Shown: positions 12,106 through 32,000 of the stretch, piece after piece
How the letters are laid out: every line of letters begins with the position of its first letter
How positions within the stretch are numbered: the first letter of the stretch is position 1
Origin: Chthonomonas calidirosea T49
GTDB lineage: Bacteria; Armatimonadota; Chthonomonadetes; Chthonomonadales; Chthonomonadaceae
Length of the DNA: 32,000 bases
Reading direction: 5' to 3'
NCBI RefSeq assembly: GCF_000427095.1
Contig: NC_021487.1
Coordinates: forward strand, 1,629,146 to 1,661,145
Made by a program: the position numbers and the translations under genes
Notes under the pieces: generated by a model
Database searches by the model: none
Told to the model about the DNA's origin: nothing
Seen by the model: the letters and a program-made list of their open reading frames with translations, nothing else

Positions 12106-12329
12106 CGTCTTTCCTAGCCTTTAGGTCTCCATTTCCATTGTACCAGCATCGTGAGCCTTCGCGGCCTCTTCATACGACACCATCTTCGAGTTTGCACGAA
12201 CGGACAGTCGAGGTGAAGCGTATTTTGAGTAAGGGCATAAAAACCACACTACCGTGCTGCAGTGGTTGCTTTTGCCCCGCAACTAGGGTAGAATGGAAGC
12301 GGTTGTGGGCGATTGAAGGAACGGTATCA

Positions 12330-13436: not shown

Positions 13437-13496
13437 CCGTCGCGCAAAGGCGCGGCGGCCAGCGTCGCGCCCAAAAACCATGCTTCCCAACTTTTT

Positions 13497-13538
13497 CGAG
13501 GGGCCGACGCAGCGATGCGAAGGCTCCTCGAACTTTTT
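13497..13538 (+). terminator. Terminator- or attenuator-like hairpin between the apbC and aminotransferase genes
   Basis: CGAGGGGCC (13497-13505) pairs with GGCTCCTCG (13522-13530). An inner CGCA-GCGA-TGCG stem (13508-13519) has a GNRA-type tetraloop. It is followed by AACTTTTT. Confidence 0.65.
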
Positions 13539-13626
13539 AGAGGCTTTGTACGAAAAAATTGCTCTGCTTTCCAACAATTTGAAAGAGAGTGCACCGACAT
13601 GCAACCATCGGAGAAAGGATAACAGC

Positions 13627-14946
13627 ATGACAAAAACGAAAGACATCCTTGCCCTCAACGAAGAGGGTTTGTTAGCAGAGGTGCTCGGATACGAAACCAA
13701 GGAGGTTGCCAAAGAGGCCCACGGCGCCGAGATAGATACCTATGCAGGGCATCATCTTATAGATTTTACAGCGGGCATTGCCGTGCATGCATGTGGGCAC
13801 ACGCACCCCGAAATCGCGCGGGCCATTAGCGCCCAAACCCATCGGGTACTTCATGTGTCGGATACCATGCGTCATGCCCCTCAGCTGGAGCTTGCCGACT
13901 GGATGCGCCGCCTTCTCAATCGCCTGCTTCCCGGCCCCTCACCTTGGACGTTTCTTTTCATGAACAGCGGCAGCGAGTCCATTGATGCTGCCGCCAAGCT
14001 TGCGCTGAAGGTGACCAAGCGTAGCGAGTTTCTCGCATTTGCCGGCGCGTTTCATGGTCGTACCCTCTTTGCCACCGCGCTCTCCTACTCCAAAATGGCC
14101 CATCGCACTCCCTATATGGGGCTACTCTCCTCACTTCGCGAACATATCTTTCATCTACCTGCACCACGATGTCAAAGCTGTTTCATCGGCCAAAAACGTG
14201 CCTGCTGCTGCCTCGAATCGCTTGAACAGCTACTGGAGGAGCGTAAAGAACGGATCGCCGCCCTCTTCTTTGAACCTCTCCAAGGCGAAGGCGGCTACGT
14301 GCCCCTAGACCCTCGCATGGCACAACAGATGCAAGCGCTTTTGCGCAAGCACCATGTGCTGCTGATAGCCGATGAGATTCAGACCGGTTGGGGTCGCACA
14401 GGAAAGTGGTTTGGTTTGGAGCATTTAGGGGTAGAGCCCGATATCCTCGTTTTCGGTAAGGCCGTAGGTGGAGGGTTACCTTTGGCCGGCTTGGCCGCAC
14501 GCAAGACGCTAATGGATCAATGGGAGCCTGGCGAGCACGGAACCACCTTCGGAGGCAACCCAGTGGCCTGCGCGGCTGGTTTGGCTACCCTGCGCATCAT
14601 CGAGCGCGAGGGTCTGGTGGAGCGCGCTGCAAAACTCGGAGGGGCCGTTCAACAGCGTCTTCGCCCCTTCGTCGGTGCTTACGGGGTGGCTGATGTGCGC
14701 GGCTGGGGCCTTATGATAGGAATCGAGTTCCGCGACGCACAGGGGCAACCGGCCTACGCACGTTGTGAGCAGATCAAGCAGAGGGCGCGGGAAAAAGGTC
14801 TCCTGTTACTTACCTGTGGTGCACGCATAGGAGATCCGTCCGTAGATAATGCCACTCTGCGCCTCATCCCACCGCTGAACATCCCGGAGGAGACGCTTTG
14901 GAGGGGTCTGGACATCCTGCTTGAGGTTATTCGCGAGACGGCTTAG
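13627..14946 (+). CDS. Class III pyridoxal-phosphate aminotransferase (aspartate aminotransferase family, GabT/ArgD-like)
   Basis: GRTLFATALS, LIADEIQTGWGRTGKWFGLEH, PDILVFGKAVGGGLPLAG, TTFGGNPVACAAGLA. ATG 13627 is preceded by GGAGAAAGG, and the upstream ORF extension overlaps a terminator-like hairpin. Confidence 0.92.
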   Translation: MTKTKDILALNEEGLLAEVLGYETKEVAKEAHGAEIDTYAGHHLIDFTAGIAVHACGHTHPEIARAISAQTHRVLHVSDTMRHAPQLELADWMRRLLNRLLPGPSPWTFLFMNSGSESIDAAAKLALKVTKRSEFLAFAGAFHGRTLFATALSYSKMAHRTPYMGLLSSLREHIFHLPAPRCQSCFIGQKRACCCLESLEQLLEERKERIAALFFEPLQGEGGYVPLDPRMAQQMQALLRKHHVLLIADEIQTGWGRTGKWFGLEHLGVEPDILVFGKAVGGGLPLAGLAARKTLMDQWEPGEHGTTFGGNPVACAAGLATLRIIEREGLVERAAKLGGAVQQRLRPFVGAYGVADVRGWGLMIGIEFRDAQGQPAYARCEQIKQRAREKGLLLLTCGARIGDPSVDNATLRLIPPLNIPEETLWRGLDILLEVIRETA

Positions 14947-15715
14947 AGGTTGCCGGTCGGCGAGCGACATAGAATAGCCTATCGGAGTAGGGTGCCGGCG
15001 GACGCAATGTGTAGGCATGATAGACAGCGATCTGGTCAAAACCGGCTTGAGTAAGAAAAGCGCGCACCTCCTGCTCCCGATAGGCATATTGCCAATGTAC
15101 CTCCTCGAAGACTTTCTGAGAGCCATCGGGCGCTCGCCAGATGAAATGCATATCCACCCGGCAGAGCCTCTTTTCGGGGAAGTAGGTACTTCGCCAATCA
15201 TAGAGCAGCGGTTCATCGCTTCCGAGATTGTTCTGATCGAAAAAACGATTCTCTAACGCATATTCGGTGTTAAGGTCAAAAATAAACAGCCCTCCCGCAG
15301 CCAGGTGGTTTGCCACCCGTTGAAAGGCCTGTGCAAGACGTTTCGGTTCAATAATGTAGTTAAGACTATCAAAAAGGCTCACACAGAGCTCGAAGGGGGC
15401 CTCGGGAAGATCAAGCTCAGCGGCATCCTGTACATAGTAGCGAATGGGGAGTTGACGCTGTGCGGCCTTACGCTTTGCCTCCTCGATCATCGCAGGGCTA
15501 ATATCTACCCCGACTACCTCCATCCCCATCGCGTGGAGCTGCTCGGCGACATTGCCCGTGCCGCAAGCGAGGTCGAGGGCCCGCTTCGGGTGTGCTTGGC
15601 GCTCTTGAAGGAGCCGTTGCAGATAGCGTGCCCACTCTTCATAGGGTACCCCTTGCATAAGGGTATCGTAAAGAGGGGCAAGCGGCTGGAAGGCGCTCTG
15701 TTTACTCATCGGCAT
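14927..15715 (-). CDS. Class I SAM-dependent methyltransferase
   Basis: ALDLACGTGNVAEQLHAMGMEVVGVDISPAMIEEAKRKA; LFDSLNYI; LAAGGLFIFDLNT. Confidence 0.88.
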   Translation of the reverse strand: MPMSKQSAFQPLAPLYDTLMQGVPYEEWARYLQRLLQERQAHPKRALDLACGTGNVAEQLHAMGMEVVGVDISPAMIEEAKRKAAQRQLPIRYYVQDAAELDLPEAPFELCVSLFDSLNYIIEPKRLAQAFQRVANHLAAGGLFIFDLNTEYALENRFFDQNNLGSDEPLLYDWRSTYFPEKRLCRVDMHFIWRAPDGSQKVFEEVHWQYAYREQEVRAFLTQAGFDQIAVYHAYTLRPPAPYSDRLFYVARRPATSKPSRE

Positions 15716-15733
15716 GGACTTTGGGTGGCCCTA

Positions 15734-17434
15734 CTAAGGCATAGCCGTCGCCGGTGGCGGTGGGTAGAGCGTCGCAAGGTTAAGAAACGGCACGGCGTCG
15801 TAACCCGTTCTCCGAAACAGCAACTCGATTGTTGGCAGAGGATCTAGTGGCAGCTGCAGGTTCATTGTTGGAGGAGCTGTTTTCGTTGCAAGTTCAAAAA
15901 GGCGCTGTGCCTCTGCCGCGTTCTTTTGAGCTAGATAGTAGGCCGAGAAAGCCAATAACACATCTGGAGCGGCGGGCATATCCGCATTCAATTTGGAAAG
16001 AATGATGAAAGCTTTTTGCGGCTGCGCCAGCTCGGTAAGCAGAAGGGCCTTGAGAATGAAAGCGCTCGGACACTTTGGATCGCTCTGCAGAGCTAAATCG
16101 CAAAGGTCTACTCCCATATTGAACAGGTGTTCTTTAAGCTGCAAGGCCTTGCGCACCCCATAATCGAGATAGGGACCTGGCTGGAAGGGAGCCAAAGAAA
16201 GCGCATTGGCGCTCGCTCTATCCGCAATGCCCAAGTCTGGTGAGGTCATCGCCAGCAAGTAGGTGGCATCTCCCGATTCGGGCAGCATAGAGGCCGCCTT
16301 CTGCGCGAGATCGTTGGCCTCGCGACGATTTCCAAGCTGCAGGTTTGCCCATGAGGCCACGATCAGCTCTGCAGCCGAGGGCTGATCCATGTCGGGTTTT
16401 AGGAGGGTTAAAGCGCGTTCGGGATAGTGCAAGCGCACGAGTAATAGGCCAGCCACCGCATGCGATACCGCATCTGCACGATGCTCGATCTCCAGTATTT
16501 TCAATAAGCTGGATGCCTCCCGGTACTGTTCCGTGTAAATATAGGCCAATGCAAGACGGTTCACCGCTTCAACGGGGGCTTTATCGCCGGAGGCAAGCGG
16601 TTTATAGGTGTCTACGGCCTCTTGATAGTGCCCTGCATTTAGCAGAGCATCGCCTAGAGCTAGTGGAGTGCTGGTCTTGTTGGCACGCACGGCCTCCACA
16701 GCGAGATCGGCAGCCTTGTGCTGAAGCGCAAGAGCCGCTCGAATTTCATCTACGGCGTGCTGCTCATCCGCCCCTGTAGCGAGAGCGATCCGCATGCGAT
16801 AGGAGGCAAGATCTAACATCGCCTCACTGCTGCTGTCAATATTTTTCAGACCGGCCAAAAGTTGTTCTGCTTTCTCATAGTCTCCTGTCTGCGCGTAGAT
16901 CTTAGCGAGCACACGTGCCGCTAACACGTTATTCGGGTCGGCTTTCAGGGCGCGTCGGCTATAGCGACGGGCAGTATCGAGGTCGCCGCCGGTTAAAGCC
17001 TGGTCGGCCTTTTGGGCCAACGCCGTAGCGCCCTCATCTAAATGGTTGTCAATAACGAGCTGCAGCGTGGCCGAGGCCGTATTACCGTCAATATCCGTTG
17101 CAGTGACTTTTAAGGTATGAGGCCCCTCTTTATCGGGAATGGTGTCCCAAAGAAACTCGTAAGGCACGCTCGTCGCTTTCGCTCTCTCCTGCCCATCCAC
17201 GTAAAAGTCCACCTCTGTGATCAGATTAGGACTAGACACATGGGCCACAATGCGCGTGACATCGCTGATATGGTCACCATCTTTAAGGTCAAAAGTTATC
17301 TTGATGTCGGCCTTGGCCCCTGTCAACGACGCAAACAGGAGAAAAAGACCGGCCAGCAGATGCCCCCAAAGCGCAACCGCACGGCGGCCTGGTCTGGAAG
17401 CAGCTCTAAAAACCGTTTGTGAGCACATTCTCAT
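15734..17434 (-). CDS. Secreted or periplasmic Ig-like domain plus TPR repeat protein
   Basis: Signal peptide-like N-terminus (LLAGLFLLFASLTGAKA/DI), Ig-like segment (VDFYVDGQERAKATSVPYEFLWDT..EGPHTLKVTATDIDGNTASATLQLVI), then many TPR units. Confidence 0.75.
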   Translation of the reverse strand: MRMCSQTVFRAASRPGRRAVALWGHLLAGLFLLFASLTGAKADIKITFDLKDGDHISDVTRIVAHVSSPNLITEVDFYVDGQERAKATSVPYEFLWDTIPDKEGPHTLKVTATDIDGNTASATLQLVIDNHLDEGATALAQKADQALTGGDLDTARRYSRRALKADPNNVLAARVLAKIYAQTGDYEKAEQLLAGLKNIDSSSEAMLDLASYRMRIALATGADEQHAVDEIRAALALQHKAADLAVEAVRANKTSTPLALGDALLNAGHYQEAVDTYKPLASGDKAPVEAVNRLALAYIYTEQYREASSLLKILEIEHRADAVSHAVAGLLLVRLHYPERALTLLKPDMDQPSAAELIVASWANLQLGNRREANDLAQKAASMLPESGDATYLLAMTSPDLGIADRASANALSLAPFQPGPYLDYGVRKALQLKEHLFNMGVDLCDLALQSDPKCPSAFILKALLLTELAQPQKAFIILSKLNADMPAAPDVLLAFSAYYLAQKNAAEAQRLFELATKTAPPTMNLQLPLDPLPTIELLFRRTGYDAVPFLNLATLYPPPPATAMP

Positions 17435-17458
17435 TGTTCTCCTAAAAACTCGTAAAGG

Positions 17459-18745
17459 TCACTGCGTATTGAGGCCTAACGTTACCCGTATGGGCCCTCC
17501 GCCCGCAGTATAGATCACCTCCGCCGGGTAGTCGTCTGGGGGAGTGAGGGATGCCTGCAAAACACGCAGCGTGAAGTTTGCCACGACCGCCTGCCCTGGA
17601 GCAAGATTGGGAAAGACGGCAGCGTCGGCAGGGTTACACTGCAAATTGGCCGGCAGCTTGTCGAGGAGCATACCCAGCTTCACCAAAGCGATGGTGTGCA
17701 GGCCTCCGTTGGAGAGGGTCAACTGAACCTGATAGCCTTGATTTTGATTCATAGGGTCCTGAGCGAGGAGTGGCAGCACGGTCATGTCGGGTGCTATTCC
17801 GAGCAAAACGGTTCCGATGATGGAGAGGTGGTCGGCGACACGACCAAGCGCATCCTCAAGTGTCTTTCCTAAATCTGCCGGTACAACATGGTCTATGCGA
17901 TAGTTTCGACACAAGCTTTGCGCCTGCCCGACGATAAGAGAAGCGGCCTTAAGGCTTTGAATGCACTCCTCCGAATCGGAGGCATTCAAAAGCCGATGAT
18001 AGTCCGCAGAGCCTTCATAGAGGATGTGACGCAGGCGATCGGCAGCGCTTCGCCTCTGCTTTGCAAACTGATGCAACGCTTCGAGCGTATCTGAAAGCGC
18101 CTGAAGCAGCGCGCTTCTTTCGTCTGTAAAGCGGTAGAGGGCAAGCTCGCCTGGCGCGAGACGATCGCGTTTCTCCACGATGCCGGCTCGCTTTAAAATC
18201 ACTCCCTGAAACCAGTGCAGGTCAAGCCCCGGTGGGCTCTGCACGGCGATGGTGCGAAGGGCTACCTGCGGTGAGATGATCGTTGAGAGGCTCTCGATCC
18301 GATAGATACCTGCTGACAAGGAGGTGCTCAGTTGGAGGTCTATCGGTTGTGTTGAGGTGTTTTGAACAAAGACCCCTAACCCCTCGGCAGTGACGGCAGC
18401 ATAGGCTACGAGGCCGGGCGTCACCGAATCGGAGTTTAGGTGGATGGCCACAGGAGTACCATCCAAACGCCCCCATTCCCACCACATCTGACGGTTACGG
18501 AACGCACTAGGAACCTGTTCAAGGCTGGCCTTAATAAGCTGAAGACGATTGGGGTCTGCTGTCAGCACCTGAGTGGGGTTCACGGTGATTTGCACATTGA
18601 CAGGGGCGACAAAGTCGGGCGTTTGTGCGGTGATTTGAGATTGAGTGCCCAACAACGCGACCACCATTCCTCCCGCAAGAGAGACGCTAACCAGGGTATA
18701 GAGCCATCGCCTATTTTTTGGGAGGAGGAAAAAGTTACCGTTCAT
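17459..18745 (-). CDS. Hypothetical secreted or membrane-anchored protein
   Basis: Complete ORF with an N-terminal hydrophobic signal or anchor (WLYTLVSVSLAGGMVVALLGTQSQITAQ). It is coupled to DUF951 by an ATGA overlap. I recognise no family. Confidence 0.75.
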   Translation of the reverse strand: MNGNFFLLPKNRRWLYTLVSVSLAGGMVVALLGTQSQITAQTPDFVAPVNVQITVNPTQVLTADPNRLQLIKASLEQVPSAFRNRQMWWEWGRLDGTPVAIHLNSDSVTPGLVAYAAVTAEGLGVFVQNTSTQPIDLQLSTSLSAGIYRIESLSTIISPQVALRTIAVQSPPGLDLHWFQGVILKRAGIVEKRDRLAPGELALYRFTDERSALLQALSDTLEALHQFAKQRRSAADRLRHILYEGSADYHRLLNASDSEECIQSLKAASLIVGQAQSLCRNYRIDHVVPADLGKTLEDALGRVADHLSIIGTVLLGIAPDMTVLPLLAQDPMNQNQGYQVQLTLSNGGLHTIALVKLGMLLDKLPANLQCNPADAAVFPNLAPGQAVVANFTLRVLQASLTPPDDYPAEVIYTAGGGPIRVTLGLNTQ

Positions 18746-23944: not shown

Positions 23945-24416
23945 CGGAGGGCTTCAGCACGGCCTCCACATTGAGGAGGATGATCAGCTCGTCCTGGTGC
24001 TTTCCGACGCCTAGAACAAACTCTGAATCCACCGTCTCGACCATCTCGGCAGGCTTCTCGATGAGGGTTTCCGAGAGTCTCAAAACCCCCACGACGCTAT
24101 CTACCTCAAGCCCCACGAGGCTGCCGTCATAGTTCACAACGATAACGCGCTGGCTCGAAGCCGACGTCCTTGCTTCCGCCGCTGGCTCTTCCGCTTCGGG
24201 GAGCCCTAAACGACGTCGCAGGTTAACGATCGGCACAATTTTGCCGCGTAGATTGATGATCCCCTTTAAGTCTTCGGCCGATCGGGGAACGTGGGTAACC
24301 TCTTGAGGCCGAATGATCTCATTGATCGCGGCAATTTCGATGCCGTAGGTCTCTCTGGCAAGGCGAAAGGCAACGAGTTGCAGCTCGCGTTCCGCCGCTT
24401 CGGTCGTAGGTGCCAA
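23928..24416 (-). CDS. cheW: CheW adaptor
   Basis: LVAFRLARETYGIEIAAINEIIRPQEVTHVPRSAEDLKGIINLRGKIVPIVNLRRRLGL. Confidence 0.94.
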   Translation of the reverse strand: MAPTTEAAERELQLVAFRLARETYGIEIAAINEIIRPQEVTHVPRSAEDLKGIINLRGKIVPIVNLRRRLGLPEAEEPAAEARTSASSQRVIVVNYDGSLVGLEVDSVVGVLRLSETLIEKPAEMVETVDSEFVLGVGKHQDELIILLNVEAVLKPSDVSGR

Positions 24417-24649
24417 AGTTATCTTAACCCCCTTATCTCATGGCAATTGCGAAGCTATTTTCGGTAAGAATAAGAGGGAGCTTTAGCATTTTAGGAGGGC
24501 GTGATAGCCAAGTTGGGAAGAAAAGCACAATCGTTTGCGCAAAAGGGAGCTGGGAACGATTCTCGACAGCAAGCCTATCAGGGGAAGTAAACGACCACTG
24601 CTTTACAGTTCTCTTTCGCACCGTGCCCCCAGACCAAACAGGTGCGAAC

Positions 24650-24677
24650 GTAGGGGCGCAGAGACCTGTGCCCCTAC
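24650..24677 (-). terminator. Hairpin overlapping the trmFO stop codon (terminator-like or repeat element)
   Basis: GTAGGGGCGCAG / CTGTGCCCCTAC arms, 12 bp with one G-U, 4-nt loop. The right arm covers the TAG stop at 24674-24676. Confidence 0.45.
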
Positions 24678-26074
24678 TTCCAGTCGGCCTCGATCTGTTG
24701 GGCGAACGCAGAGATAGCCTCAAGGGCGCGCTCTGCTTTTAGACGCGCCTTTTCTCGTTTATCGCGCACCGTGAGGCCTTGCAGTTCGGGCACAAGCCCC
24801 CAGTTGGCGTTCATCGGGGCAAAATGTTTGGGGTCGGCCTCCACTAGATAGTGGCAAAGGGCGCCCAACACGGTTATTTTGGGTGGCACGGCGGGCGGTA
24901 AACCTTTCAGCCATCGTAGGGCATTGATGCCGGCGATCATCCCGATAGCTGCCGACTCCAGGTAGCCTTCCACGCCCGTGATCTGGCCGGCCAAGAAGAT
25001 TCCGGGATGCTTTCTCAGTTCAGCGTGTGCCGTAAGCACCAGCGGTGCGTTTACATAGGTGTTACGGTGCATCACGCCATAGCGCACGAACTCAGCGTTC
25101 TCAAGGCCAGGGATCATTCGAAAGATGCGCTTCTGCTCGCCCCATTTCAAGCGCGTTTGAAACCCCACCATCCCCCAAAGGGTGCCCTCCCGATTCTCCT
25201 GCCGCAACTGCACCACCGCGTAGGGGCGCTTTCCAGTGCGTGGGTCTATCAACCCTATTGGCTTCATGGGGCCGTAGAGAAGGGTTCGAGGTCCGCGCCG
25301 TGCCAACTCTTCAATAGGCACACACATTTCAAAGAACACCATCTTTTGTGCCGGCTCCGCCTGTTCAAAATCGTGCAGAGGGGCCAACTCCGCATGGCAA
25401 AGCGCCTCCCAGAAGGCCATATACTCTTCTTTGGTAAGGGGACAGTTCAGGTAGTCTGCGCTTATCGCCGTCTCGGTTGCGCATTCGGCAGTGGCTTCGC
25501 CACCCACCCCTTCTTGCCTGGCGCCGCGCCCTCGCCGCGAGGCGCGAAATAGGCGGCTCCAATCCAGGCTTTCGCCAAGCACGGTGGGGGCGACCGCGTC
25601 GTAAAACGAGAGGGCGGTGTTGTCCGTAAGCTGCTTCAGCTCCTGTGCCAGCGCATCCGAGGTAAGCGGACCGGTGGCGAGAATGAGGGGGCGCGCCTCA
25701 GGGAGTTGCGTTACCTCCTCTCGAATCACGGTGATGTTTGGATGGCTCTCGATGGCCGCGGTAACGTCACATGCAAACCGTTCACGGTCTACCGCCAAGG
25801 CCTCTCCAGCCGGCACCGCATGGCGCTGAGCGATAGGCAGAATGAGGGAGCCGAGTCGACGCATCTCCTCCTTTAAAACGCCACTCGCGTTGGTCAGCAA
25901 CGTGGATTTAAAAGAGTTAGAGCATACCAGCTCGGCTAGGTTCGCCGTACGGTGCACCGGCGTCTGACGTTTGGGACGCATTTCGTAAAGGTGCACTTTT
26001 GCACCACGCTGTGCACACGCCCACGCAGCTTCTACTCCGGCAAAACCGCCACCGACAACGGTTATCGTCTCCAT
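24674..26074 (-). CDS. trmFO: Methylenetetrahydrofolate--tRNA-(uracil-5-)-methyltransferase TrmFO
   Basis: METITVVGGGFAGVEAAWACAQRGAKVHLYEMRP..TPVHRTANLAELVCSNSFKS, LGSLILPIAQRHAVPAGEALAVDRE, DYLNCPLTKEEY, GQITGVEGYLESAAIGMIAG, APMNANWGL. ATG at 26074 is the natural start. Confidence 0.95.
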   Translation of the reverse strand: METITVVGGGFAGVEAAWACAQRGAKVHLYEMRPKRQTPVHRTANLAELVCSNSFKSTLLTNASGVLKEEMRRLGSLILPIAQRHAVPAGEALAVDRERFACDVTAAIESHPNITVIREEVTQLPEARPLILATGPLTSDALAQELKQLTDNTALSFYDAVAPTVLGESLDWSRLFRASRRGRGARQEGVGGEATAECATETAISADYLNCPLTKEEYMAFWEALCHAELAPLHDFEQAEPAQKMVFFEMCVPIEELARRGPRTLLYGPMKPIGLIDPRTGKRPYAVVQLRQENREGTLWGMVGFQTRLKWGEQKRIFRMIPGLENAEFVRYGVMHRNTYVNAPLVLTAHAELRKHPGIFLAGQITGVEGYLESAAIGMIAGINALRWLKGLPPAVPPKITVLGALCHYLVEADPKHFAPMNANWGLVPELQGLTVRDKREKARLKAERALEAISAFAQQIEADWK

Positions 26075-26180
26075 TTTCTGTTGCGCTCCGCTTTCGCAGC
26101 ACCTGGGGTGATTCTTGTTTCCACTCTTGCCTGTTGAGCGAAGAGGGCACCCCAACCAAGCTACAACCCCTATGATACCC

Positions 26181-26207
26181 TACCCTTCTCCTTTCAGGAG
26201 AAGGGTA
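26181..26207. repeat. Perfect 12-bp inverted repeat with 3-nt loop
   Basis: TACCCTTCTCCT-TTC-AGGAGAAGGGTA in the trmFO/GH25 intergenic region. Confidence 0.7.
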
Positions 26208-26288
26208 AGGAGATGGAGCCGTTATACGCTTACGCAAGCTGACATCCTACATTCTCCATCTGCTATTCGCCATTCCCTTGAATTGACG

Positions 26289-26324
26289 AAGGCGTCGGGC
26301 TTAACATCGCAACACCGACGCCTT
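26289..26324 (-). terminator. 3'-end hairpin of the capsid/lysis cassette
   Basis: AAGGCGTCGG (26289-26298) / CCGACGCCTT (26315-26324), perfect 10 bp, directly after the GH25 TAA. No long T-run follows on the minus strand. Confidence 0.5.
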
Positions 26325-27023
26325 TTAGACCTGAGGGGGATGGAATGAGTTAGCAGGCAAGCGAATGCAAGCCGGAATAGGAATACCGAACAGCCCACAT
26401 AGAGCTCGAATATCCTCACCGTGAAAACGATCCCGATCGGTCTCTTTCACCGAGGGGATGCCGGGAACGGTTCCTCGAGGAGTATACTGCCAAAACGTCC
26501 ACTTTTGCCAGCCCTTGGGCAATCGTGGGTTGGGCTGCCCCGTGTAGTGAGCCACCCAAAGCGGATGCCCAGAATAGGCATCCGTGCCGTCCATCCACTC
26601 GTCCCAAAAGGCGGGGCTTGTGTAGATGATGGGCAGCTTACCTATCATGGTGCGCGCCGTGATAAGAAACATGGAGACAGCAAACTGCAGGCGCGCTTTG
26701 CCAATGCGTTGGGCGCCCTCAAGGTCTTCCAAATCGAGAGCGATGGGCAGATCTCGGGCGGGGTCGTAACCGGCACGACGGGCTGTGCGGATGCAGAACT
26801 CGGCTTGCCAACCACCTGGCTCATCGCAACGGAAGTAGTGATATACTCCGCGCACTATCCCCACAGAACGCATGCCGGAGAGGTTCCTTTCTAAATAGGG
26901 GTCAACAATGCTTGTCCCTTCGGTGGCTTTACAAAAAGCGAACCCGATCCCCCCACACTCCACCTGCTCCCAGTCAATGCCGTTGTCGTCGTGACTTATG
27001 TCTACTCCTTCTAGCAACGCCAT
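26325..27023 (-). CDS. GH25 family lysozyme (endolysin-like muramidase)
   Basis: GVDISHDDNGIDWEQVECGGIGFAFCKATEGTSIVDPYLERNLSGMRSVGIVRGVYHYFRC; LPIALDLED; PIIYTSPAFW; LWVAHYTGQPNPRLPKGWQKWTFWQYTPRGTVPGI. AAGGAG is immediately adjacent to ATG 27023, so a TTG at 27017 may be used. Confidence 0.93.
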   Translation of the reverse strand: MALLEGVDISHDDNGIDWEQVECGGIGFAFCKATEGTSIVDPYLERNLSGMRSVGIVRGVYHYFRCDEPGGWQAEFCIRTARRAGYDPARDLPIALDLEDLEGAQRIGKARLQFAVSMFLITARTMIGKLPIIYTSPAFWDEWMDGTDAYSGHPLWVAHYTGQPNPRLPKGWQKWTFWQYTPRGTVPGIPSVKETDRDRFHGEDIRALCGLFGIPIPACIRLPANSFHPPQV

Positions 27024-27136
27024 CTCCTTAAAAACGTTCTCTCTGCCTCTTCGTTACAGAAAACCTTGCAAAACCTCCCTTATCCGTTAGACAGAGAGAA
27101 AGGCAGAAAAAGCTCCGAAATTCCCTTCCAAAAATG

Positions 27137-27217
27137 CTAGTTTTTTCGGCTACAAAAGGGAAAACTAGAGAGTTTACTTGCCCGCCGATGCATCTTAGGC
27201 ATTGGCGGGCAAGTAAA
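27137..27217 (-). promoter_or_regulatory. Tandem hairpins between the small membrane protein gene and the lysozyme gene
   Basis: TTTACTTGCCCGCCGATGC (27173-27191) / GCATTGGCGGGCAAGTAAA (27199-27217), 19 bp with one G-U. Second: CTAGTTTTTTC (27137-27147) / GGGAAAACTAG (27158-27168). Confidence 0.6.
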
Positions 27218-27219
27218 AG

Positions 27220-27474
27220 CTAGGAATTGGAATTAGATGAGCCTTCTAACTTCTGAGCGGTACGTTGAATAGCTCCGTCGGCCCAGGTCTGAATCTGTTG
27301 CGCCAATACCGGAATCACCTTCTGCAGCTCCTCCTGAACCAGCGGACGCACCGCATCGGGCACAACTTTGCTTTTGATCTTAAGCTGGTCAGCCCGAATG
27401 GTTAACATCCGATGCAACACTCCACCCAAAAACCCCAACGTGAGGGGTACAAGGTGCGATAAAAAACTGCCCAT
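27220..27474 (-). CDS. Small membrane protein, holin-like
   Basis: 84 aa with one N-terminal hydrophobic segment (FLSHLVPLTLGFLGGVL) and a soluble helical tail. It lies next to the lysozyme gene. Confidence 0.5.
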   Translation of the reverse strand: MGSFLSHLVPLTLGFLGGVLHRMLTIRADQLKIKSKVVPDAVRPLVQEELQKVIPVLAQQIQTWADGAIQRTAQKLEGSSNSNS

Positions 27475-27593
27475 AGTTTTTGCGCGCAGAAACCGCCGAC
27501 CTAACTAGAGGGTGCGGTTTGCGGGCGCTTTTCTCCTTTCCTTTTCGTTTTGACGGTCGGTGAAGAACCTCATTTCGGCAATGGGCACGCCGC

Positions 27594-27872
27594 TTAAAAC
27601 GCTTGGTAGCGCCCGCTGCGTCTTCGATAGCGAATGGCGATATCTAGCTTCTCCTCGATGCGCGCGAGGCGGGCATTCAGTTCCGAAAGCGTCTGATCGC
27701 GCTGCTCGTTACGCGCCTGCTCAGCCCGCATTTCGCTCTGAACTCCACCAACGCGCTCCTCCAACAGGGCAAGCCGATTGGCCTGACGAATCAACGTGGC
27801 AACGGCCGCTCCGATCCCACTGATCAACGAAACTGTGGCCATAGCCACCGTTATTGGCTCTGTGCTGGTCAT
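27594..27872 (-). CDS. Small membrane/coiled-coil protein, holin- or XhlA-like
   Basis: N-terminal hydrophobic segment followed by a heptad-rich coiled coil (RLALLEERVGGVQSEMRAEQARNEQRDQTLSELNARLARIEEKLDIAI). The family assignment is inference. Confidence 0.55.
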   Translation of the reverse strand: MTSTEPITVAMATVSLISGIGAAVATLIRQANRLALLEERVGGVQSEMRAEQARNEQRDQTLSELNARLARIEEKLDIAIRYRRRSGRYQAF

Positions 27873-27893
27873 CTTCTCTCCCCTTTGTGCACC

Positions 27894-28154
27894 TCAATAC
27901 AGCCCAATAAGGAGCGCACCGTTTGTGCTGGAGCCAGTCGCCCACACCTGCTGAACGGCAATAGGGTTATAGCCTTTTATAAAAGGGATGGTGAGCTGGT
28001 CTCCGCCCAGCGTGGTGACATGAAGCGTGCAATCGGCGCTCACCAAAATCCCACGAGCATAAGGAACACCGCTCACGCTGGCTGCCACCAGCTGGGTGTC
28101 GCTGGGCGCGATAAGCCAGGCGCGCTGGGCTGGGTTTGCAGGAGGAATATTCAT
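27894..28154 (-). CDS. Small phage/GTA protein resembling the Rcc01079-type spike base family
   Basis: 86 aa pattern: PSDTQLVAASVSGVPYARGILVSADCTLHVTTLGGDQLTIPFIKGYNPIAVQQVWATGSSTNGALLIGLY. The terminal 'V.ATG(T/S)T....I.LY' motif is typical of that family. Confidence 0.5.
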   Translation of the reverse strand: MNIPPANPAQRAWLIAPSDTQLVAASVSGVPYARGILVSADCTLHVTTLGGDQLTIPFIKGYNPIAVQQVWATGSSTNGALLIGLY

Positions 28155-28483
28155 CTGCGCCCTCCTTGTTTGCCCCCTGTACCACTCCTTAACGAGCCCG
28201 CCAGCACCTGCTTTTCCAAAGCATCTACCCGGCCTTTAAGCCGCTCCCACTCCCTCGCCATCTCCTCAAACGTAGGCAACCGTCGCTCGCTGCCGTCCGG
28301 AAAAGCTGCGGGGAAGGGGGCAAGCTTAGGGTCTTCCGGCCCTGCAACGGTCTGCACCTCCAACATCGGTTCAGCGCAAACGGCCTCACTTATCTGCGAA
28401 ACCAACAGCCATTTTTGGCAGGGGTACAGCACCCCCTCCACACGAAAGCCCCGCCCTTGTCCTCGACATCGCACAGCATACAT
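28151..28483 (-). CDS. Hypothetical small phage-cassette protein with C-terminal coiled coil
   Basis: 110 aa, ATGA overlap with the next gene, two Cys near the N-terminus, and FEEMAREWERLKGRVDALEKQVL helix. Confidence 0.55.
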   Translation of the reverse strand: MYAVRCRGQGRGFRVEGVLYPCQKWLLVSQISEAVCAEPMLEVQTVAGPEDPKLAPFPAAFPDGSERRLPTFEEMAREWERLKGRVDALEKQVLAGSLRSGTGGKQGGRR

Positions 28484-28507
28484 CTCTCCTCCCCTCCTTC
28501 CAAAAAG

Positions 28508-29437
28508 CTATGCGGTGGCATTGGAACCGTAAGCAAGCTGCCAAAGTCCATAGCCCTGCACGTAGCGCCCCCGCACGGTGAAATGGTAGCGCTCGCGAAT
28601 GCGGGCCTCCGGCATGTCCATGTCGGTTTCGAGCGTGATCGGCACGTCGCTGCGATTCTGGATAACAATGGGTTTCACCTCGCGACTGCAGTCCAGCAAG
28701 AACCATTGATAGCCTGAAATGTAGGGATTGATCACCAGCTTATAGCGGCCATTAAAGTAGTTGCGATAGGGGGTAGAGGGCACCCCAGCCGTGCCCACCT
28801 CGCCAGGCTGGTACACGATGTCCTGAGCCACAAGGTTCCATGCGCGCCGCGCCAACAGCGGCCCCACCACCAATGTGTCGGGCACCACATGCATCGGAAT
28901 GCCCTTGTCATCTACAAAGCTCATCATCGCGGTTGCGGCGGCCTCTAAAGACGCATCGCTGAGAGGCGCGGTGGTGATGTTGCTCTGAATAGGGCTGCTT
29001 CCTTCCTGATGATTCGCATTGAAGAAGTACTGCCCATCATAGCAAAGCTGCGAAAACCCAGCTACCAACCCCTGAAACGCCAGCTGATTCCAGTGCCGCA
29101 CCGGCTCCTGAGCCAGCTCCCGAACCCGAAGCATGATCAGGCCGTACTGATCGTCCTCGATCATGCGCCTATCAATCACCAAAGCACCCTTGTAGAGAAT
29201 ATCGGCCAGCTGATAGGTATCTTCTCGAAGCGCCTGCTCTTTTATCTCATCGGCAAACGGCTGCATAACCGCTCCACGACCAAGCCAGGCGTAACGCTGA
29301 ATGGGCAGGGTCGTCGGCAGCTCCGTGGCGATCTGGCGCCAATCCGCCTTTTCGTTGGCCTCCAAATAGGCGTTGTTAAACTCCGTTTTGATCCCCGCCT
29401 GCGTTAACAAAAGCAGGTCGGATGTCACAATGGCCAT
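28508..29437 (-). CDS. Mu-like phage major capsid (head subunit gpT-like) protein
   Basis: Length 309 aa. Sequence features: RYAWLGRGAVMQPFADEIKEQALREDTYQLADILYKGALVIDRRMIEDDQYGLIMLRVRELAQEPVRHWNQLAFQGLVAGF, CYDGQYFFNANHQEG, DTLVVGPLLARRAWNLV. The pattern is that of Mu gpT-type HK97-fold capsids. Confidence 0.8.
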   Translation of the reverse strand: MAIVTSDLLLLTQAGIKTEFNNAYLEANEKADWRQIATELPTTLPIQRYAWLGRGAVMQPFADEIKEQALREDTYQLADILYKGALVIDRRMIEDDQYGLIMLRVRELAQEPVRHWNQLAFQGLVAGFSQLCYDGQYFFNANHQEGSSPIQSNITTAPLSDASLEAAATAMMSFVDDKGIPMHVVPDTLVVGPLLARRAWNLVAQDIVYQPGEVGTAGVPSTPYRNYFNGRYKLVINPYISGYQWFLLDCSREVKPIVIQNRSDVPITLETDMDMPEARIRERYHFTVRGRYVQGYGLWQLAYGSNATA

Positions 29438-29499
29438 ATCGTTTCACTCCTTCAAAAGTCCATCCAATGCAACAAGCAACTTAACAGGAGAGATTGCCT

Positions 29500-29931
29500 C
29501 TAGCGAACCGCGACATCAATGCGAATGCGAACGTCGTTCGCATCCTCCACCCCAACCACATAGCCCACCAACGTGTTTGGGTTGGAGCCGTTGGTGGCGT
29601 TTGTCGTCAGCGTCTGATCGTCGAGCGCGTAGATGGCATCTCCTACCAAATTTTGTGAGGCAGAGGACAGCGCGAACACATAGGTGCCCGTCTTCTGTAC
29701 GCGAATGCTCTGTGCCCCCGCTGGTCCTCCGCTGTTATCTATGGTCTCGTACGCGACGCCCAAAAAGTTATCGGCGGTAACTGCCGCACCCGCCCTTGCT
29801 GGGTAGGCGTATCCGTCGGCATTATAAGCCACCACCAACGTTCCCTTGTTGATGCGCACCGCGCCCATTTTGTAGGCCACGATCTGCCCCGGTTTCCTTT
29901 GAGCCTCGCGCGGCCCTGTAGATGCTGCCAT
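29500..29931 (-). CDS. Capsid decoration/stabilisation-like protein (DUF2190-like)
   Basis: VAYKMGAVRINKGTLVVAYNADGYAYPARAGAAVTADNFLGVAYETIDNSGGPAGAQSIRVQKTGTYVFAL..., between the protease and capsid genes. Confidence 0.6.
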   Translation of the reverse strand: MAASTGPREAQRKPGQIVAYKMGAVRINKGTLVVAYNADGYAYPARAGAAVTADNFLGVAYETIDNSGGPAGAQSIRVQKTGTYVFALSSASQNLVGDAIYALDDQTLTTNATNGSNPNTLVGYVVGVEDANDVRIRIDVAVR

Positions 29932-29965
29932 CCTAAACGTCTCCTCTTGTTAAAAATCGTGCTCT

Positions 29966-31441
29966 CTATTCTCTCGCCGCTAACAGGTTCTCCGCAAACG
30001 CCTCCTGTTTCTCCGGCGTGGTAAACCCCATCTTAATGGCCATGGCTCGCTGCGCTTCCGATAGCCGTTCCCAAGCGCTGGTTGCTCCCCGCTCTTCAGC
30101 GGGGCCTGGAAGGAGGCAGGGTGCTGACACTCGCCGGCCTCCACCCGCAGCCTCCACACCAAACCTTGCATCGGCCTCCAGATTCCAGGCGAGCGCTTTG
30201 GCTCTCACAACCTCGATCGGCTCGAAATCCACCTGCGCGCCTATGGTCGTTCCGCTCTCCGCGCCATAAAGACGTATGGCCGCTCTTTTTGCCTCTGCCC
30301 GTGCCTCCTCAAGTGCACCGAGGCCGAGCTTCGCCATCTCTAGCCGATGTCGCAAGTCTGACGCTGAAACGATGCCGTGCTCCTGCAACAGCTGCACAAC
30401 CGCGCTGTCGAGCTCACTAACAGCCTCTATCGGCTGTGTCGTCTCCTCTCCAAGAACCCCATCGCTATCCAACAAGGCCTCCTCCATCTCCAAAACGGCC
30501 TCTAGCTGCTTCGCAGGCTCCTCCGCCTTCGCCATCACCTCCTGCCCTCGCCGCAAAGCGGAGAGAATCTGCCGCACTCCCTCTTTCCAATGCATGGACA
30601 TCTCGCTCCTTTCTCCATCCCTTCTATCCATCCGTTGCCGCACCTGCGCGCGGGCGCGTAAACGTTTCAACGCCTCCTCAAACGAAAGCACCTCATCCAC
30701 CAACCCCACCTGCACAGCCTGATGCCCTACAAAAAGCCCTCCGCGCGCGACCTGCTGCAGCTGCTGCTCAGTAAGAGCCCGTCGCTGCCGCACAAAGCGG
30801 GTAAATATCGCTCCCACCGTGCCCACATAACGCTCCAAATAGCGCACATCGGCAGGTAGAAGCGGCTGACCTGGCGCTCCTACCCGCTTGCGTGGGCCGG
30901 TAGCAACCGCATGCACCCGCAAGCCAGCCCGCTCTAACGCGCGACTGCTGTCGGTAACCACCAACAAAGCCCCTACCCCTCCCACCGTCGCCGTTGGGTT
31001 ACAGTAGATGGCATCGGCAGCACAAGCGATCCAGTAGGCCGCACTACACCCGATATCTTCGATGTAGGCCGCTAAAGGCTTACGCCGCGCGAATTGACAG
31101 AGGGCCATCGCCAGGTCATGCGTGCCCGCCACTTGCCCTCCCGGCGAATCGATGCGCAGCAGAAGAGCTCTCACTTTCGGATCGCTGAACGCTTGGCCTA
31201 CCGCAAAACGCGCCCAACGCGTGGAACATCCTCCCTCCACCACCTGCTTCGTTAACCGACCCACCAGATTGAGCACCGCAACGCCATCCTCAAGCACTTG
31301 AAAACCTGGCCCAGTCTCCAGCAAACCAGCCCTCTGTTCCTCGGGTAGCGTTGCCTGCAACACCCGCGGCTCGGAGGCAGCCGCCTCCGCATGGGGTTCC
31401 AACGCCCACAGGGCATCCTCCGTTAACCAACCGTTTCCCAT
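29966..31441 (-). CDS. S49 (SppA/ClpP-like) capsid maturation protease with long C-terminal, probably scaffold-like, region
   Basis: ALLLRIDSPGGQVAGTHDLAMAL, AAYIEDIGCSAAYWIACAADAIYCNPTATVGGVGALLVVTDSSRALERAGLRVHAVATGPRKRVGAPGQPL; C-terminal helical region of ~200 aa. ATG 31441 has AGGTG 8 nt upstream. The ORF track starts at GTG 31450. Confidence 0.88.
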   Translation of the reverse strand: MGNGWLTEDALWALEPHAEAAASEPRVLQATLPEEQRAGLLETGPGFQVLEDGVAVLNLVGRLTKQVVEGGCSTRWARFAVGQAFSDPKVRALLLRIDSPGGQVAGTHDLAMALCQFARRKPLAAYIEDIGCSAAYWIACAADAIYCNPTATVGGVGALLVVTDSSRALERAGLRVHAVATGPRKRVGAPGQPLLPADVRYLERYVGTVGAIFTRFVRQRRALTEQQLQQVARGGLFVGHQAVQVGLVDEVLSFEEALKRLRARAQVRQRMDRRDGERSEMSMHWKEGVRQILSALRRGQEVMAKAEEPAKQLEAVLEMEEALLDSDGVLGEETTQPIEAVSELDSAVVQLLQEHGIVSASDLRHRLEMAKLGLGALEEARAEAKRAAIRLYGAESGTTIGAQVDFEPIEVVRAKALAWNLEADARFGVEAAGGGRRVSAPCLLPGPAEERGATSAWERLSEAQRAMAIKMGFTTPEKQEAFAENLLAARE

Positions 31442-31502
31442 GATTTTCACCTATCGCTTTTAAGAAATAGCGAGATCGCTAATTCCCATTTCATAAGCAT
31501 TC

Positions 31503-31544
31503 GGCGCAGGAGACTCTTGCTGAAAGGCAAGAGAAGAATGCGCC
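31503..31544 (-). promoter_or_regulatory. Two-tier hairpin in the leader of the capsid cassette
   Basis: Outer GGCGCA (31503-31508) / TGCGCC (31539-31544), 5x5 internal loop, inner CTCTTGC (31514-31520) / GCAAGAG (31527-31533), 6-nt loop. It lies 62-103 nt upstream of ATG 31441. Confidence 0.45.
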
Positions 31545-32000
31545 TTCCATCTTTTCCTTTGCCTAAAAAAGTGCTTTCCTGACAACGATCAAATTGACTG
31601 TGCAGGTCACGTAAGGCACCGAATGCCGCGTACTAGAAAAGCCGCTTCCTTCACTACCCCAGCTGCCCAGATCGTCGAGACGGTTGAGGCATCAGAAAAT
31701 GCCCTAACCCTGCGGCGAACACCAACTTCGCAAGCACCAATAGAGAGGGTGAGCATGATATCGAGAAGGTGAATTCTCCTTGCTAGCAGCATGGGAATCA
31801 TGCTTAGCCGCTATTAGAGAGCCACGCGGCACAGCAAGTCGTTGGACGATCTGTGATGAAGATTCACCGTCGGGTCTTTGTCAACGTTTTAGCTGAGCGT
31901 AGTTCATCCAAGCACTTACGGTCTCTAAAGCTAGAGATAAAAACCGGTAATTTTTCAATCGATCTGTCGTTCTGTTCTAAGGTATCTTGCCTTAACGAGT

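Follow-up and report, generated by a model that had tools for sequence, protein, structure and literature searches.

A tail-less, phage-derived head and lysis island in the chromosome of Chthonomonas calidirosea

The head block of phage lambda runs from the small and large terminase genes (TerS and TerL) through the portal, an S49 protease with a nested scaffold and a decoration protein to the major capsid protein. Retention of DNA in tailed-phage heads usually requires adaptor and stopper proteins. RcGTA of Rhodobacter capsulatus has both a neck, consisting of adaptor, stopper and terminator, and a DNA-delivering tail (PMC7296036, PMC5026251). The TIFN prophages of Lactococcus lactis are tail-defective residents that are reported to release tail-less, DNA-containing heads (PMC8752148, PMC6154921). 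cf-PICIs are ~10-14 kb long and lack tail genes, although TerS, TerL, portal, protease and capsid are all self-encoded; their capsids are completed with helper tails, and the elements carry an integrase, regulator, primase-replicase and head-tail adaptor/connector, have no holins and are mobile (PMC10085698; bioRxiv 10.1101/2025.02.11.637232).

The stretch analysed here, the window, is 32 kb of the C. calidirosea chromosome. This hot-spring bacterium carries a siphovirus-derived island of ~10.3 kb, and eight genes of the window form its right-hand two thirds, the remainder of the window consisting of housekeeping genes. Genes past base 32000 were read from C. calidirosea GCA_001458035.1 (locus L001; window x = 39438 - L001 x) and are given would-be window positions.

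24674-26155: trmFO, next after the GH25 gene
26325..27023, minus strand: GH25 muramidase (endolysin), 232 aa (PF01183 8.7e-40, residues 7-189; phrog_291 4e-28)
27173..27217, minus strand: strong, conserved hairpin that immediately follows the holin-like gene, with GH25 ~150-200 nt downstream
27220..27474, minus strand: single-pass membrane protein, 84 aa, probable holin (hydrophobic segment at residues 8-26)
27594..27872, minus strand: membrane protein, 92 aa, candidate holin, antiholin or spanin-like lysis accessory (N-terminal hydrophobic segment, then coiled coil)
27894..28154, minus strand: capsid spike base protein, RcGTA Rcc01079 family, 86 aa (NCBIfam NF048002, 33.4 bits, cut-off 28)
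28151..28483, minus strand: 110-aa protein with no assigned role, adjoining the capsid and spike base genes here and in relatives
28508..29437, minus strand: major capsid protein (MCP), Mu gpT-like, HK97-fold family, 309 aa (PF10124 2.3e-51; phrog_371 4e-55)
29500..29931, minus strand: capsid cement/decoration protein, 143 aa (PF09956 24.2 bits, cut-off 24; phrog_1731 1.3e-21)
29966..31450, minus strand: prohead protease, S49/SppA type, 491-494 aa (PF01343 3.7e-32; phrog_53 1.1e-52; TIGR00706 5.6e-37)
31442..32000: C. calidirosea-specific non-coding spacer of 560 bp, preceding the protease gene
would-be 32002-33028, opposite strand: pAdhesive_15 gene (adhesin-like), separating portal from protease
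would-be 33081-34577: portal (phrog_3753 8e-19)
would-be 34540-36024: large terminase, TerL (phrog_38 2.4e-76)
would-be 35717-36442: putative small terminase, TerS

The island thus reads putative TerS, TerL, portal, the opposite-strand adhesin-like gene, protease/scaffold, cement protein, MCP, 110-aa protein and spike base, followed by the two small membrane proteins, the hairpin and the GH25 endolysin. Host genes border it: one flank has glycerate kinase and a secreted Big_7 protein, the other trmFO. No tRNA was found at these boundaries, and the only flanking repeat is 11 bp, of which ~0.01-0.1 are expected by chance. Searches of the island found no integrase, regulator, replication (primase-replicase), neck or tail genes. 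The surviving genes are full length and all catalytic motifs are intact. An earlier note on this DNA had described eight co-oriented minus-strand genes followed by trmFO as a self-contained capsid and lysis cassette without packaging or tail genes. The reading frames and gene identifications, that of the spike base included, proved right and are backed by family matches, and the absence of tail genes holds for the C. calidirosea island. The apparent lack of packaging genes was a window-edge artefact, because the window ended too soon: portal, TerL and putative TerS lie 1.1-4.4 kb past base 32000 (would-be 33081-36442). By the note's own reckoning, a complete terminase-portal-head block just right of base 32000 with tail genes elsewhere in the element would make this an ordinary or decaying prophage; the first half is borne out, as terminase and portal are indeed there, but the island has no tail genes.

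The portal is 58-67% identical to the portals of relatives, and TerL shows both Walker motifs, PPQVGKS for A and LLIIDD for B, as well as the nuclease aspartates. The TerS candidate shares 40% identity with the ORF upstream of TerL at locus L007, and its frame overlaps TerL by 308 nt. Where C. calidirosea has the 560-bp spacer, a sister Chthonomonas species has only 47 bp. The spacer has no relevant Rfam match, no promoter-like site on the minus strand and a fold z of -1.47, which does not bear out the structured leader proposed for it previously.

Within the head genes, the protease carries a C-terminal scaffold-like extension of ~200 aa and an S49-type motif, GCSAAYWIA, visible in the translation; with the sister-species protein it shares 82% identity (dN/dS 0.15). 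The cement gene sits between the protease and capsid genes in every relative examined (dN/dS 0.044). The MCP is identical across all C. calidirosea contigs found, and 98% of its amino acids are the same in the sister species (dN/dS 0.015). The 110-aa protein has no Pfam, PHROG or NCBIfam match, with homologues at loci L019, L003, L004, L020 and L181 (dN/dS 0.11). For the spike base (dN/dS 0.047), a profile of six homologues, all six matching phrog_12296, gave a near-full-length match to PDB 6TB9 ('Head spike base Rcc01079', E 5.5e-5). No adaptor or stopper (head-tail connector) protein was identified in the island, the 110-aa protein possibly excepted.

In both small membrane proteins a single hydrophobic segment at the N-terminus precedes helical or coiled-coil sequence. 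In the 92-aa protein hydropathy reaches a maximum of 1.95 at residues 7-25, and homologues occupy the same position at L007 and L003. At L003 (72 aa), L007 (98 aa) and L019 a homologue of the 84-aa protein lies directly upstream of the GH25 gene, and it keeps this place when GH25 is at a different location; the role of the 84-aa protein is assigned from position and topology because it has no family match. The earlier note had labelled both proteins holin-like; the holin and Rz-like spanin PHROG matches, seen for the 92-aa protein, are weak (E 0.01-0.05). The minimum free energy of the hairpin is -32 to -35 kcal/mol in the two C. calidirosea strains, with z from -8 to -10; the sister-species hairpin reaches -26 kcal/mol, with z -5.8. 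Its stem shows compensatory pair differences between the strains and against the sister species, and its loop is inverted between the strains. It is a candidate terminator or attenuator that may set endolysin expression apart from the head operon. The endolysin itself shows the motifs DISHDDNGIDW and ALDLE, has no signal sequence and gives a dN/dS of 0.10.

The sister species (L019) is colinear with C. calidirosea from glycerate kinase through GH25 at 82% nucleotide identity and shares the left junction. Directly after GH25, however, it has a GDSL/SASA esterase, c20, 108, c37 and a Phage_tube_2 tail tube, and with these neck and tail genes in place the island can no longer be called self-contained. 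The neck/tail module comprises c20, 108, c37, the tail tube, 228, 70, 225 and a ~900-aa protein, and is found in three further lineages in varying arrangement; the loci with this set are L003, L175, L177 and L007. At L004, L010, L020 and L095, which are phage-like relatives, c20 follows closely on the MCP and the p86/p110 homologues. GH25 homology between the two species stops 49 nt short of the stop codon, at about window position 26374; beyond 'GIP(I/V)P' the C-terminal tails diverge. Since homology ends in the last GH25 codons, C. calidirosea probably lost the module by deletion, as judged from one breakpoint. Identity to the L007 lineage is only ~30% for TerL versus 78% for the MCP, which points to module exchange typical of active phages and argues against pure vertical descent.

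The earlier note had proposed checking synteny and dN/dS in related genomes, and this check shows an island common to the sister species, with dN/dS from 0.015 (MCP) to 0.35 (TerS) and portal and terminase among the most constrained genes (0.07-0.09), although these between-species values average both branches and could largely reflect the time before the tail deletion. Synonymous divergence of the island from the sister species (dS 0.3-1.2) resembles that of the host flank genes (0.55-0.63). Within C. calidirosea we observed 32 synonymous and 12 nonsynonymous differences and no indels in ~8 kb of coding sequence, giving a pN/pS of 0.12 (p = 2e-11 against neutrality) compared with 0.22 in the host flanks; this test covers 44 substitutions between two strains, both tail-less. 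Over the same interval the inserted adhesin-like gene gained two frameshifts. Derived amino-acid changes number 43 on the tail-less branch versus 47 on the tailed branch, so the tail-less branch shows no acceleration. The surviving island genes are not decaying and are under purifying selection, in keeping with the earlier argument that intact frames speak against simple decay.

We consider it about an even chance that this is a tail-less phage-derived island, vertically inherited and selectively maintained, which still produces heads filled with DNA and brings about cell lysis. On expression, heads would assemble, be matured by the protease and be decorated with cement and spike proteins; terminase and portal would fill them with DNA, and lysis of the producer cell by holin and GH25 would release particles without tails. 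Two findings weigh against this reading: no adaptor or stopper, such as tailed-phage heads usually require to retain DNA, was identified unless the 110-aa protein is one, and TerL and the MCP differ in their closeness to the L007 lineage. The island would then be an old element of domesticated or GTA-like status, not a freshly decaying prophage.

It is possible instead, though we think it rather unlikely, that the island is an inert remnant whose tail and early genes were recently deleted, leaving functionless head and lysis genes that have had too little time to decay. The sister-species tail module missing beyond the breakpoint in the GH25 3' end, the lack of an integrase or regulator, the interruption of the head operon by the 560-bp spacer and a host-type gene, and the extension of the TerS frame into TerL would all fit such a remnant. 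The strains are also only 0.65% diverged, and therefore sample little time. Yet the within-species excess of synonymous change arose in a tail-less species, the neighbouring adhesin-like gene broke twice while the island genes did not, amino-acid change was not accelerated and every catalytic motif has survived. The eroded prophage of the earlier note holds as history, the tail module having been lost, but not as a description of the island today, in which constraint on the remaining genes persists.

A complete GTA-like or prophage system with its neck and tail genes dispersed in the chromosome, and tailed particles still made, seems to us improbable. Modules are split and shuffled in related genomes: L177 has a tail-only block beside a phytoene-synthase-like gene of the host, at L003 head and tail genes occur without TerL or portal, and at L007 the portal lies ~5 kb downstream of the head genes; the C. 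calidirosea genome has been described as 'seemingly disorganized' (PMC4959169), and RcGTA is itself multilocus (PMC5026251). Against this, the 32-kb window and ~10 kb past its edge hold no neck or tail homologue, and searches with the sister-species tail tube and one other tail-tube query recovered relatives with identities as low as 37% and nothing from C. calidirosea, in a database that contains C. calidirosea proteins and returns its capsid protein by name. We find still less probable a capsid-forming satellite that makes its own heads, packages itself and borrows helper-phage tails. An island encoding TerS, TerL, portal, protease and capsid and no tail follows cf-PICI logic (PMC10085698; bioRxiv 10.1101/2025.02.11.637232), but it falls outside the cf-PICI definition: the search for an integrase, an AlpA/MerR-type regulator and a primase-replicase found none of them, a head-tail adaptor/connector was not identified either, and holin-like and endolysin genes are present where the cfPICI model counts holin profiles as forbidden components. 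Besides the short flanking repeat, the syntenic position and host-like divergence in two species argue against current mobility. A domesticated, encapsulin-like shell of capsid and protease without DNA packaging, as raised in the earlier note and suggested by a window that alone shows only shell and lysis genes, is very hard to credit, as portal and terminase adjoin the head genes and are conserved. Encapsulin systems are not known to have portal, terminase, S49 protease/scaffold or cement proteins.

The tail-less, maintained island that we favour shares with the lambda-type head block its gene order and families from TerS through the HK97-fold capsid protein. It differs in that portal and protease are separated by the spacer and an opposite-strand host-type gene, a lysis cassette stands where neck and tail genes would be, and tail, integration and regulatory genes are missing. 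Like the L. lactis TIFN prophages it is tail-defective and persists in its host, but those prophages are otherwise complete and release particles without obvious lysis, whereas the island is stripped to packaging, head and lysis genes. It resembles a cf-PICI in length, in its own TerS, TerL, portal, protease and capsid and in lacking a tail; integrase, regulator, primase-replicase, adaptor/connector, absence of holins and mobility are cf-PICI features that it does not share. Unlike RcGTA, it has no neck or tail, its capsid, protease and terminase come from different families, and its lysis genes lie inside the cluster. The likeness to GTAs lies in the lack of integrase, replication and regulatory genes, in host-like divergence and in purifying selection. 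As in RcGTA (PMC7296036, PMC5026251), the structural cluster starts at the terminase beside host genes, and the head spike base Rcc01079 is one homologous component common to both.

Translation of the window returned eight minus-strand open reading frames at the positions where the earlier note, made from the sequence alone, had drawn a capsid and lysis cassette, and family matches bore out its labels for the S49 protease, cement protein, capsid protein, GH25 lysozyme and the neighbouring trmFO. The protease is of the S49 type with a long C-terminal extension (PF01343, 3.7e-32) and the major capsid protein (MCP) is Mu gpT-like (PF10124, 2.3e-51; PF25209, 1.5e-11), giving the maturation protease/scaffold and HK97-fold MCP of a tailed-phage head module. 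A 110-aa protein had no match across the libraries scanned (Pfam, PHROG, NCBIfam). Four public C. calidirosea contigs encode an MCP identical to that of the window, one of them being the 3.44-Mb CDLG01000001.1 (GCA_001458035.1). Locus L001 takes in the island and extends ~10 kb past the window edge (window x = 39438 - L001 x).

The 86-aa protein, previously described as spike-base-like, is indeed a member of the Rcc01079 family, scoring 33.4 bits against NCBIfam NF048002 (cut-off 28). A profile built from six homologues matches the head spike base of RcGTA (PDB 6TB9, E 5.5e-5) over nearly its full length, with profile positions 4-80 aligned to residues 10-81 of 84. The RcGTA spike base forms pentamers at the capsid vertices (PMC7296036). 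AlphaFold2, run on the single 86-aa sequence, gave a model too poor to use (pLDDT 40), and the identity rests on the sequence profiles. The six homologues also match phrog_12296, labelled 'tail fiber protein', a label we rejected because NCBIfam and the PDB favour a spike base.

At the end of the cassette the GH25 muramidase (PF01183, 9e-40) has its catalytic domain right at the start and carries no secretion signal; trmFO follows. Each of the two holin-like proteins has one N-terminal hydrophobic segment with helical sequence after it, and their family matches are weak. The family of one of them, an 84-aa single-pass protein, adjoins the GH25 gene in all relatives compared, even where GH25 has been relocated, and the muramidase and its adjoining small membrane protein together form a holin-endolysin cassette, holin activity being predicted. 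A hairpin sits within this region:

Window 27173-27217 (L001 12221-12265), minus strand: hairpin with a stem of ~19 bp, directly 3' of a holin-like gene

The hairpin lies ~150-200 nt upstream of GH25; its fold z is -5.8 in the sister species and -8 to -10 in two C. calidirosea strains. Stem differences among the two strains and the sister species are compensatory pairs, and one strain has the loop as the reverse complement of the other's. A role as terminator or attenuator is possible, by which endolysin expression would be uncoupled from the head operon.

The earlier note had described this cassette as free of packaging genes, which proved to be an artefact of the window edge, as the portal, TerL and a putative TerS lie just past base 32000. 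Of the genes for which it had proposed extending the flank, terminase and portal are therefore present, and integrase and tail were not found. The extension holds four features, the portal and the following three:

L001 2996-3721, outside the window: putative TerS, a 241-aa ORF that overlaps the TerL start
L001 3414-4898, outside the window: TerL, a 494-aa ORF
L001 6410-7436 (would-be window 32002-33028), plus strand of the window, opposite to the island: pAdhesive_15 gene

TerL matches phrog_38 (2.4e-76) and PF17289 (3e-6), and its 494-aa ORF shows Walker A, Walker B and the nuclease aspartates, so that both ATPase and nuclease are represented. An automated 410-aa call was rejected, as its start lies past Walker A and the 494-aa ORF matches phrog_38 from residue 33. 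The portal, also outside the window (phrog_3753, 8.4e-19), is 58-67% identical to relatives' portals located between TerL and protease. We assign the 241-aa ORF as a putative small terminase, since it shares 40% identity with the ORF that precedes TerL in a related element. It reads 308 nt into TerL in another frame with a low-complexity tail, alike in both species; the homologue in the related locus L007 is 159 aa.

Inserted between portal and protease, the pAdhesive_15 gene encodes an ice-binding-like adhesin whose C-terminus is PEP-CTERM-like. In the window's strain it is broken by frameshifts from two single-base insertions; the second C. calidirosea strain and the sister species have intact copies of 350 and 381 aa, respectively. 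The frameshifts could be genuine pseudogenisation or assembly errors. The packaging genes give way to genes for a secreted protein with a Big_7 domain, glycerate kinase and a DNA polymerase of family B. Upstream of the protease, both C. calidirosea strains carry a non-coding, lower-GC spacer of ~480-560 bp (window 31442-32000), at whose place the sister species has 47 bp only. The structured leader once proposed here was dropped: the fold is unremarkable (z -1.47), there is no relevant Rfam match and no minus-strand promoter-like site. In the Rfam search (E <= 1) of 24000-32000 the sole match, sub-threshold, was to whalefall-1 within GH25; scanning for sigma-70 sites and terminators gave nothing above shuffle expectation, and the spacer has no repeat copy among the sequences compared.

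The island spans ~10.3 kb between flanking host genes, the remainder of the window being housekeeping. The absence of tail genes stood up to a wider search. Using tblastn with 17 neck, tail and post-GH25 proteins of relatives we obtained no match in the window or L001, Pfam and PHROG scans of the window genes gave no tail family, and no neck adaptor, stopper or connector gene was identified in the island. Searches with tail-tube queries of a database in which C. calidirosea proteins are indexed recovered relatives down to 37% identity and no C. calidirosea homologue. Neither between the border genes nor within ~10 kb on either side did we find integrase or transposase, repressor or regulator, or replication genes. 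The locus lacks, in other words, both the neck and tail and the integrase, repressor and replication functions of a complete (inducible) prophage. There is no tRNA gene at the borders, and a single flanking repeat was found:

Window 26307-26317 and L001 2876-2886, in the two border intergenic regions: 11-bp direct repeat CGGTGTTGCGA

Around 0.01-0.1 such matches are expected by chance, and the right-hand copy falls inside a terminator-like hairpin after GH25; the repeat hints weakly at an old attachment site.

Capsid homologues of 56-79% identity occur in Chthonomonadaceae, other Armatimonadota MAGs and viral contigs. In the phage-like loci L004, L010, L020 and L095 a conserved protein of ~280 aa, c20, is encoded shortly downstream of the capsid gene, after homologues of the spike base and the 110-aa protein in loci where such could be detected, and ahead of more structural genes; in L004 a tape-measure domain protein stands at the end of the stretch examined. 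Most telling is L019, from a Chthonomonas sp. MAG, which shares the left junction with C. calidirosea; its contig NZ_DATGKU010000240.1 has the same sequence as Ga0209061_1002296. Colinearity with C. calidirosea, at ~82% nucleotide identity, extends from the 3' part of the glycerate kinase gene via the Big_7 gene across the whole island. Past GH25, the next genes in L019 encode a GDSL/SASA esterase, c20, a 108-aa protein, c37 and a Phage_tube_2 tail tube of 412 aa. Homology between the two species stops 49 nt short of the GH25 stop codon, and the C-terminal tails of the enzymes are unrelated. The neck and tail set (c20, 108, c37, tube, 228, 70, 225 and ~900 aa) is also conserved in L003, L175 and L177, and its presence in three further lineages suggests that the module was ancestral and has been lost by C. 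calidirosea.

The elements of Chthonomonadaceae relatives are shuffled. L177 (3790-11615) has a tail-only block beside a phytoene-synthase-like host gene, L003 (6082-19762) has lysis, head and tail genes with no TerL or portal, and in L007 (4076-18676) the portal sits ~5 kb downstream of the head genes and the element is interspersed with glycosyltransferase and FlgT-like genes on the opposite strand. The tail block of L175 is interrupted by methyltransferase and acyltransferase genes, and in L019 an acyltransferase gene follows the tube gene. L019 also has, at 1341-2137, an intergenic region of ~800 bp between Big_7 and TerS in which a ~100-bp repeat occurs twice; this region is 166 bp in C. 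calidirosea.

Synteny and dN/dS were among the checks that the earlier note had proposed. The island is colinear in the sister species, its eleven genes are of near-equal length in C. calidirosea and L019, and dN/dS for this pair, which represents two species and one compared junction (the left), ranges from 0.015 to 0.35.

dN/dS of island genes, C. calidirosea against the sister species (L019)
MCP: 0.015
Cement: 0.044
Spike base: 0.047
Portal: 0.073
TerL: 0.089
GH25: 0.10
110-aa protein: 0.11
Protease: 0.15
92-aa protein: 0.23
TerS: 0.35

Values of dS are 0.3-1.2 in the island against 0.55 and 0.63 in two host flank genes, which fits co-divergence of the island with its host. When polarised with outgroups, derived amino-acid changes number 43 on the tail-less branch and 47 on the tailed one. 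Two strains of C. calidirosea, neither with a tail at the locus, differ at 0.65% of positions, and between them the island genes show 32 synonymous and 12 nonsynonymous differences and 0 indels. The resulting pN/pS is 0.12 (p = 2e-11 against the neutral expectation; two strains, a small sample), compared with 0.22 in the host flanks. Over the same strain interval the adhesin-like gene has acquired two frameshifts. The low pN/pS and lack of indels in the island genes reject, on this small sample, neutral decay since the common ancestor of the strains.

A second, distant capsid module emerged from a capsid scan of Armatimonadota-labelled genomes, which gave 162 confirmed matches, with 80 loci retained. 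Most of the retained loci (L005, L013, L014, L012, L022-L094) carry this module, whose MCP is 41-45% identical to that of the window:

L083 8773-10936 (flanks 12065-17565): example of the second capsid module

Its core comprises a protease of ~290 aa (phrog_976), a cement protein of ~140 aa (phrog_1731) and an MCP of ~310 aa; three loci have in addition a Mu-type portal, a VanY/M15 endolysin and five small proteins. TerL and portal lie nearby in varying positions, and the loci inspected had no tail gene that could be recognised within 10 kb. In four Fimbriimonadaceae-labelled genomes the module adjoins rseP, dxr, lysA and a class-I tRNA synthetase gene; identity across these genomes is 45-70% for host proteins and 65-69% for the MCPs, a pattern that suggests long vertical inheritance.

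Taken together, the data support well the view that the island derives from a siphovirus-type element and, tail-less, has kept the packaging, head and lysis modules, that it is old enough to be shared with a sister species at the same site, and that it is still under constraint. Upon expression, the genes would be predicted to give protease-matured heads decorated with cement and spikes, which would be filled via terminase and portal and freed by holin/GH25 lysis. Several observations count against functional particles. Adaptor and stopper genes were not identified, a host-type gene and the spacer divide the head operon, and TerL is only ~30% identical between this lineage and L007 where the capsid is 78% identical, a contrast that points to phage-like module exchange in deeper history. 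It is conceivable, if doubtful, that the island is an inert remnant that was recently truncated, a reading opposed by the rejection of neutral decay between the strains. That the system is instead dispersed, with tail genes elsewhere in the genome, has precedent in the split modules of related genomes; we consider it unlikely given that tail-tube searches sensitive enough to reach distant relatives returned nothing from C. calidirosea. A satellite resembling the cf-PICIs is very improbable, as the island fails their definition on integrase, regulator, primase and adaptors and possesses lysis genes. The genes also speak against the encapsulin-analogous shell raised in the earlier note. An encapsulin-type compartment is an HK97-fold shell that has no portal, terminase or maturation protease; the island carries all three, as portal, TerL and S49 protease, under constraint, and a packaging-free protein shell is scarcely credible.

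A bolder proposal, which we offer tentatively and think rather improbable, is that Armatimonadota maintain domesticated phage-head systems and that the island is a working head-only agent serving its host. Programmed lysis of a subpopulation would then release terminase-filled, spike-decorated, tail-less capsids; examples of their possible use are decoys and, in geothermal soil, DNA carriers stable to heat and acid. This domestication reading deserves attention mainly because of the conserved synteny of the second module at deep divergence. If functional, the island would be a selectively maintained set of phage-derived packaging, head and lysis genes with no DNA-delivery organelle, a state between gene transfer agent (GTA), capsid-forming satellite and cryptic prophage, and would raise the question of what role a tail-less, DNA-filled capsid plays for its host. 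If not, it is a well-preserved prophage remnant and a caution on absence calls at a window edge. The tailed sister island, the split head and tail modules of relatives and the phylum-wide syntenic capsid module also form a natural experiment that could show how phage structural modules become domesticated and dismantled.

Full-text literature searches returned no paper relevantly linking GTAs with Armatimonadetes or Armatimonadota, and the 2016 paper on four C. calidirosea isolates (PMC4959169) mentions no prophage. Among known systems, cf-PICIs are defined by an integrase, an AlpA/MerR-type regulator and a primase-replicase (PMC10085698), none of which is in the island. They also have a head-tail adaptor or connector and lack holin and tail, whereas the island has no identified adaptor or connector and encodes two holin-like genes and an endolysin. 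The predicted phenotype is most like that of tail-defective lactococcal prophages, which release tail-less heads (PMC8752148). In status the island most resembles a GTA. It is a terminase-first structural cluster with no replication, integration or regulation genes of its own; it abuts host genes, and its vertical inheritance and purifying selection are seen across two species and one junction. It differs in having at its locus no neck and tail, which define the DNA-delivering GTA particle (PMC7296036), and it has in common with RcGTA the Rcc01079 spike base.
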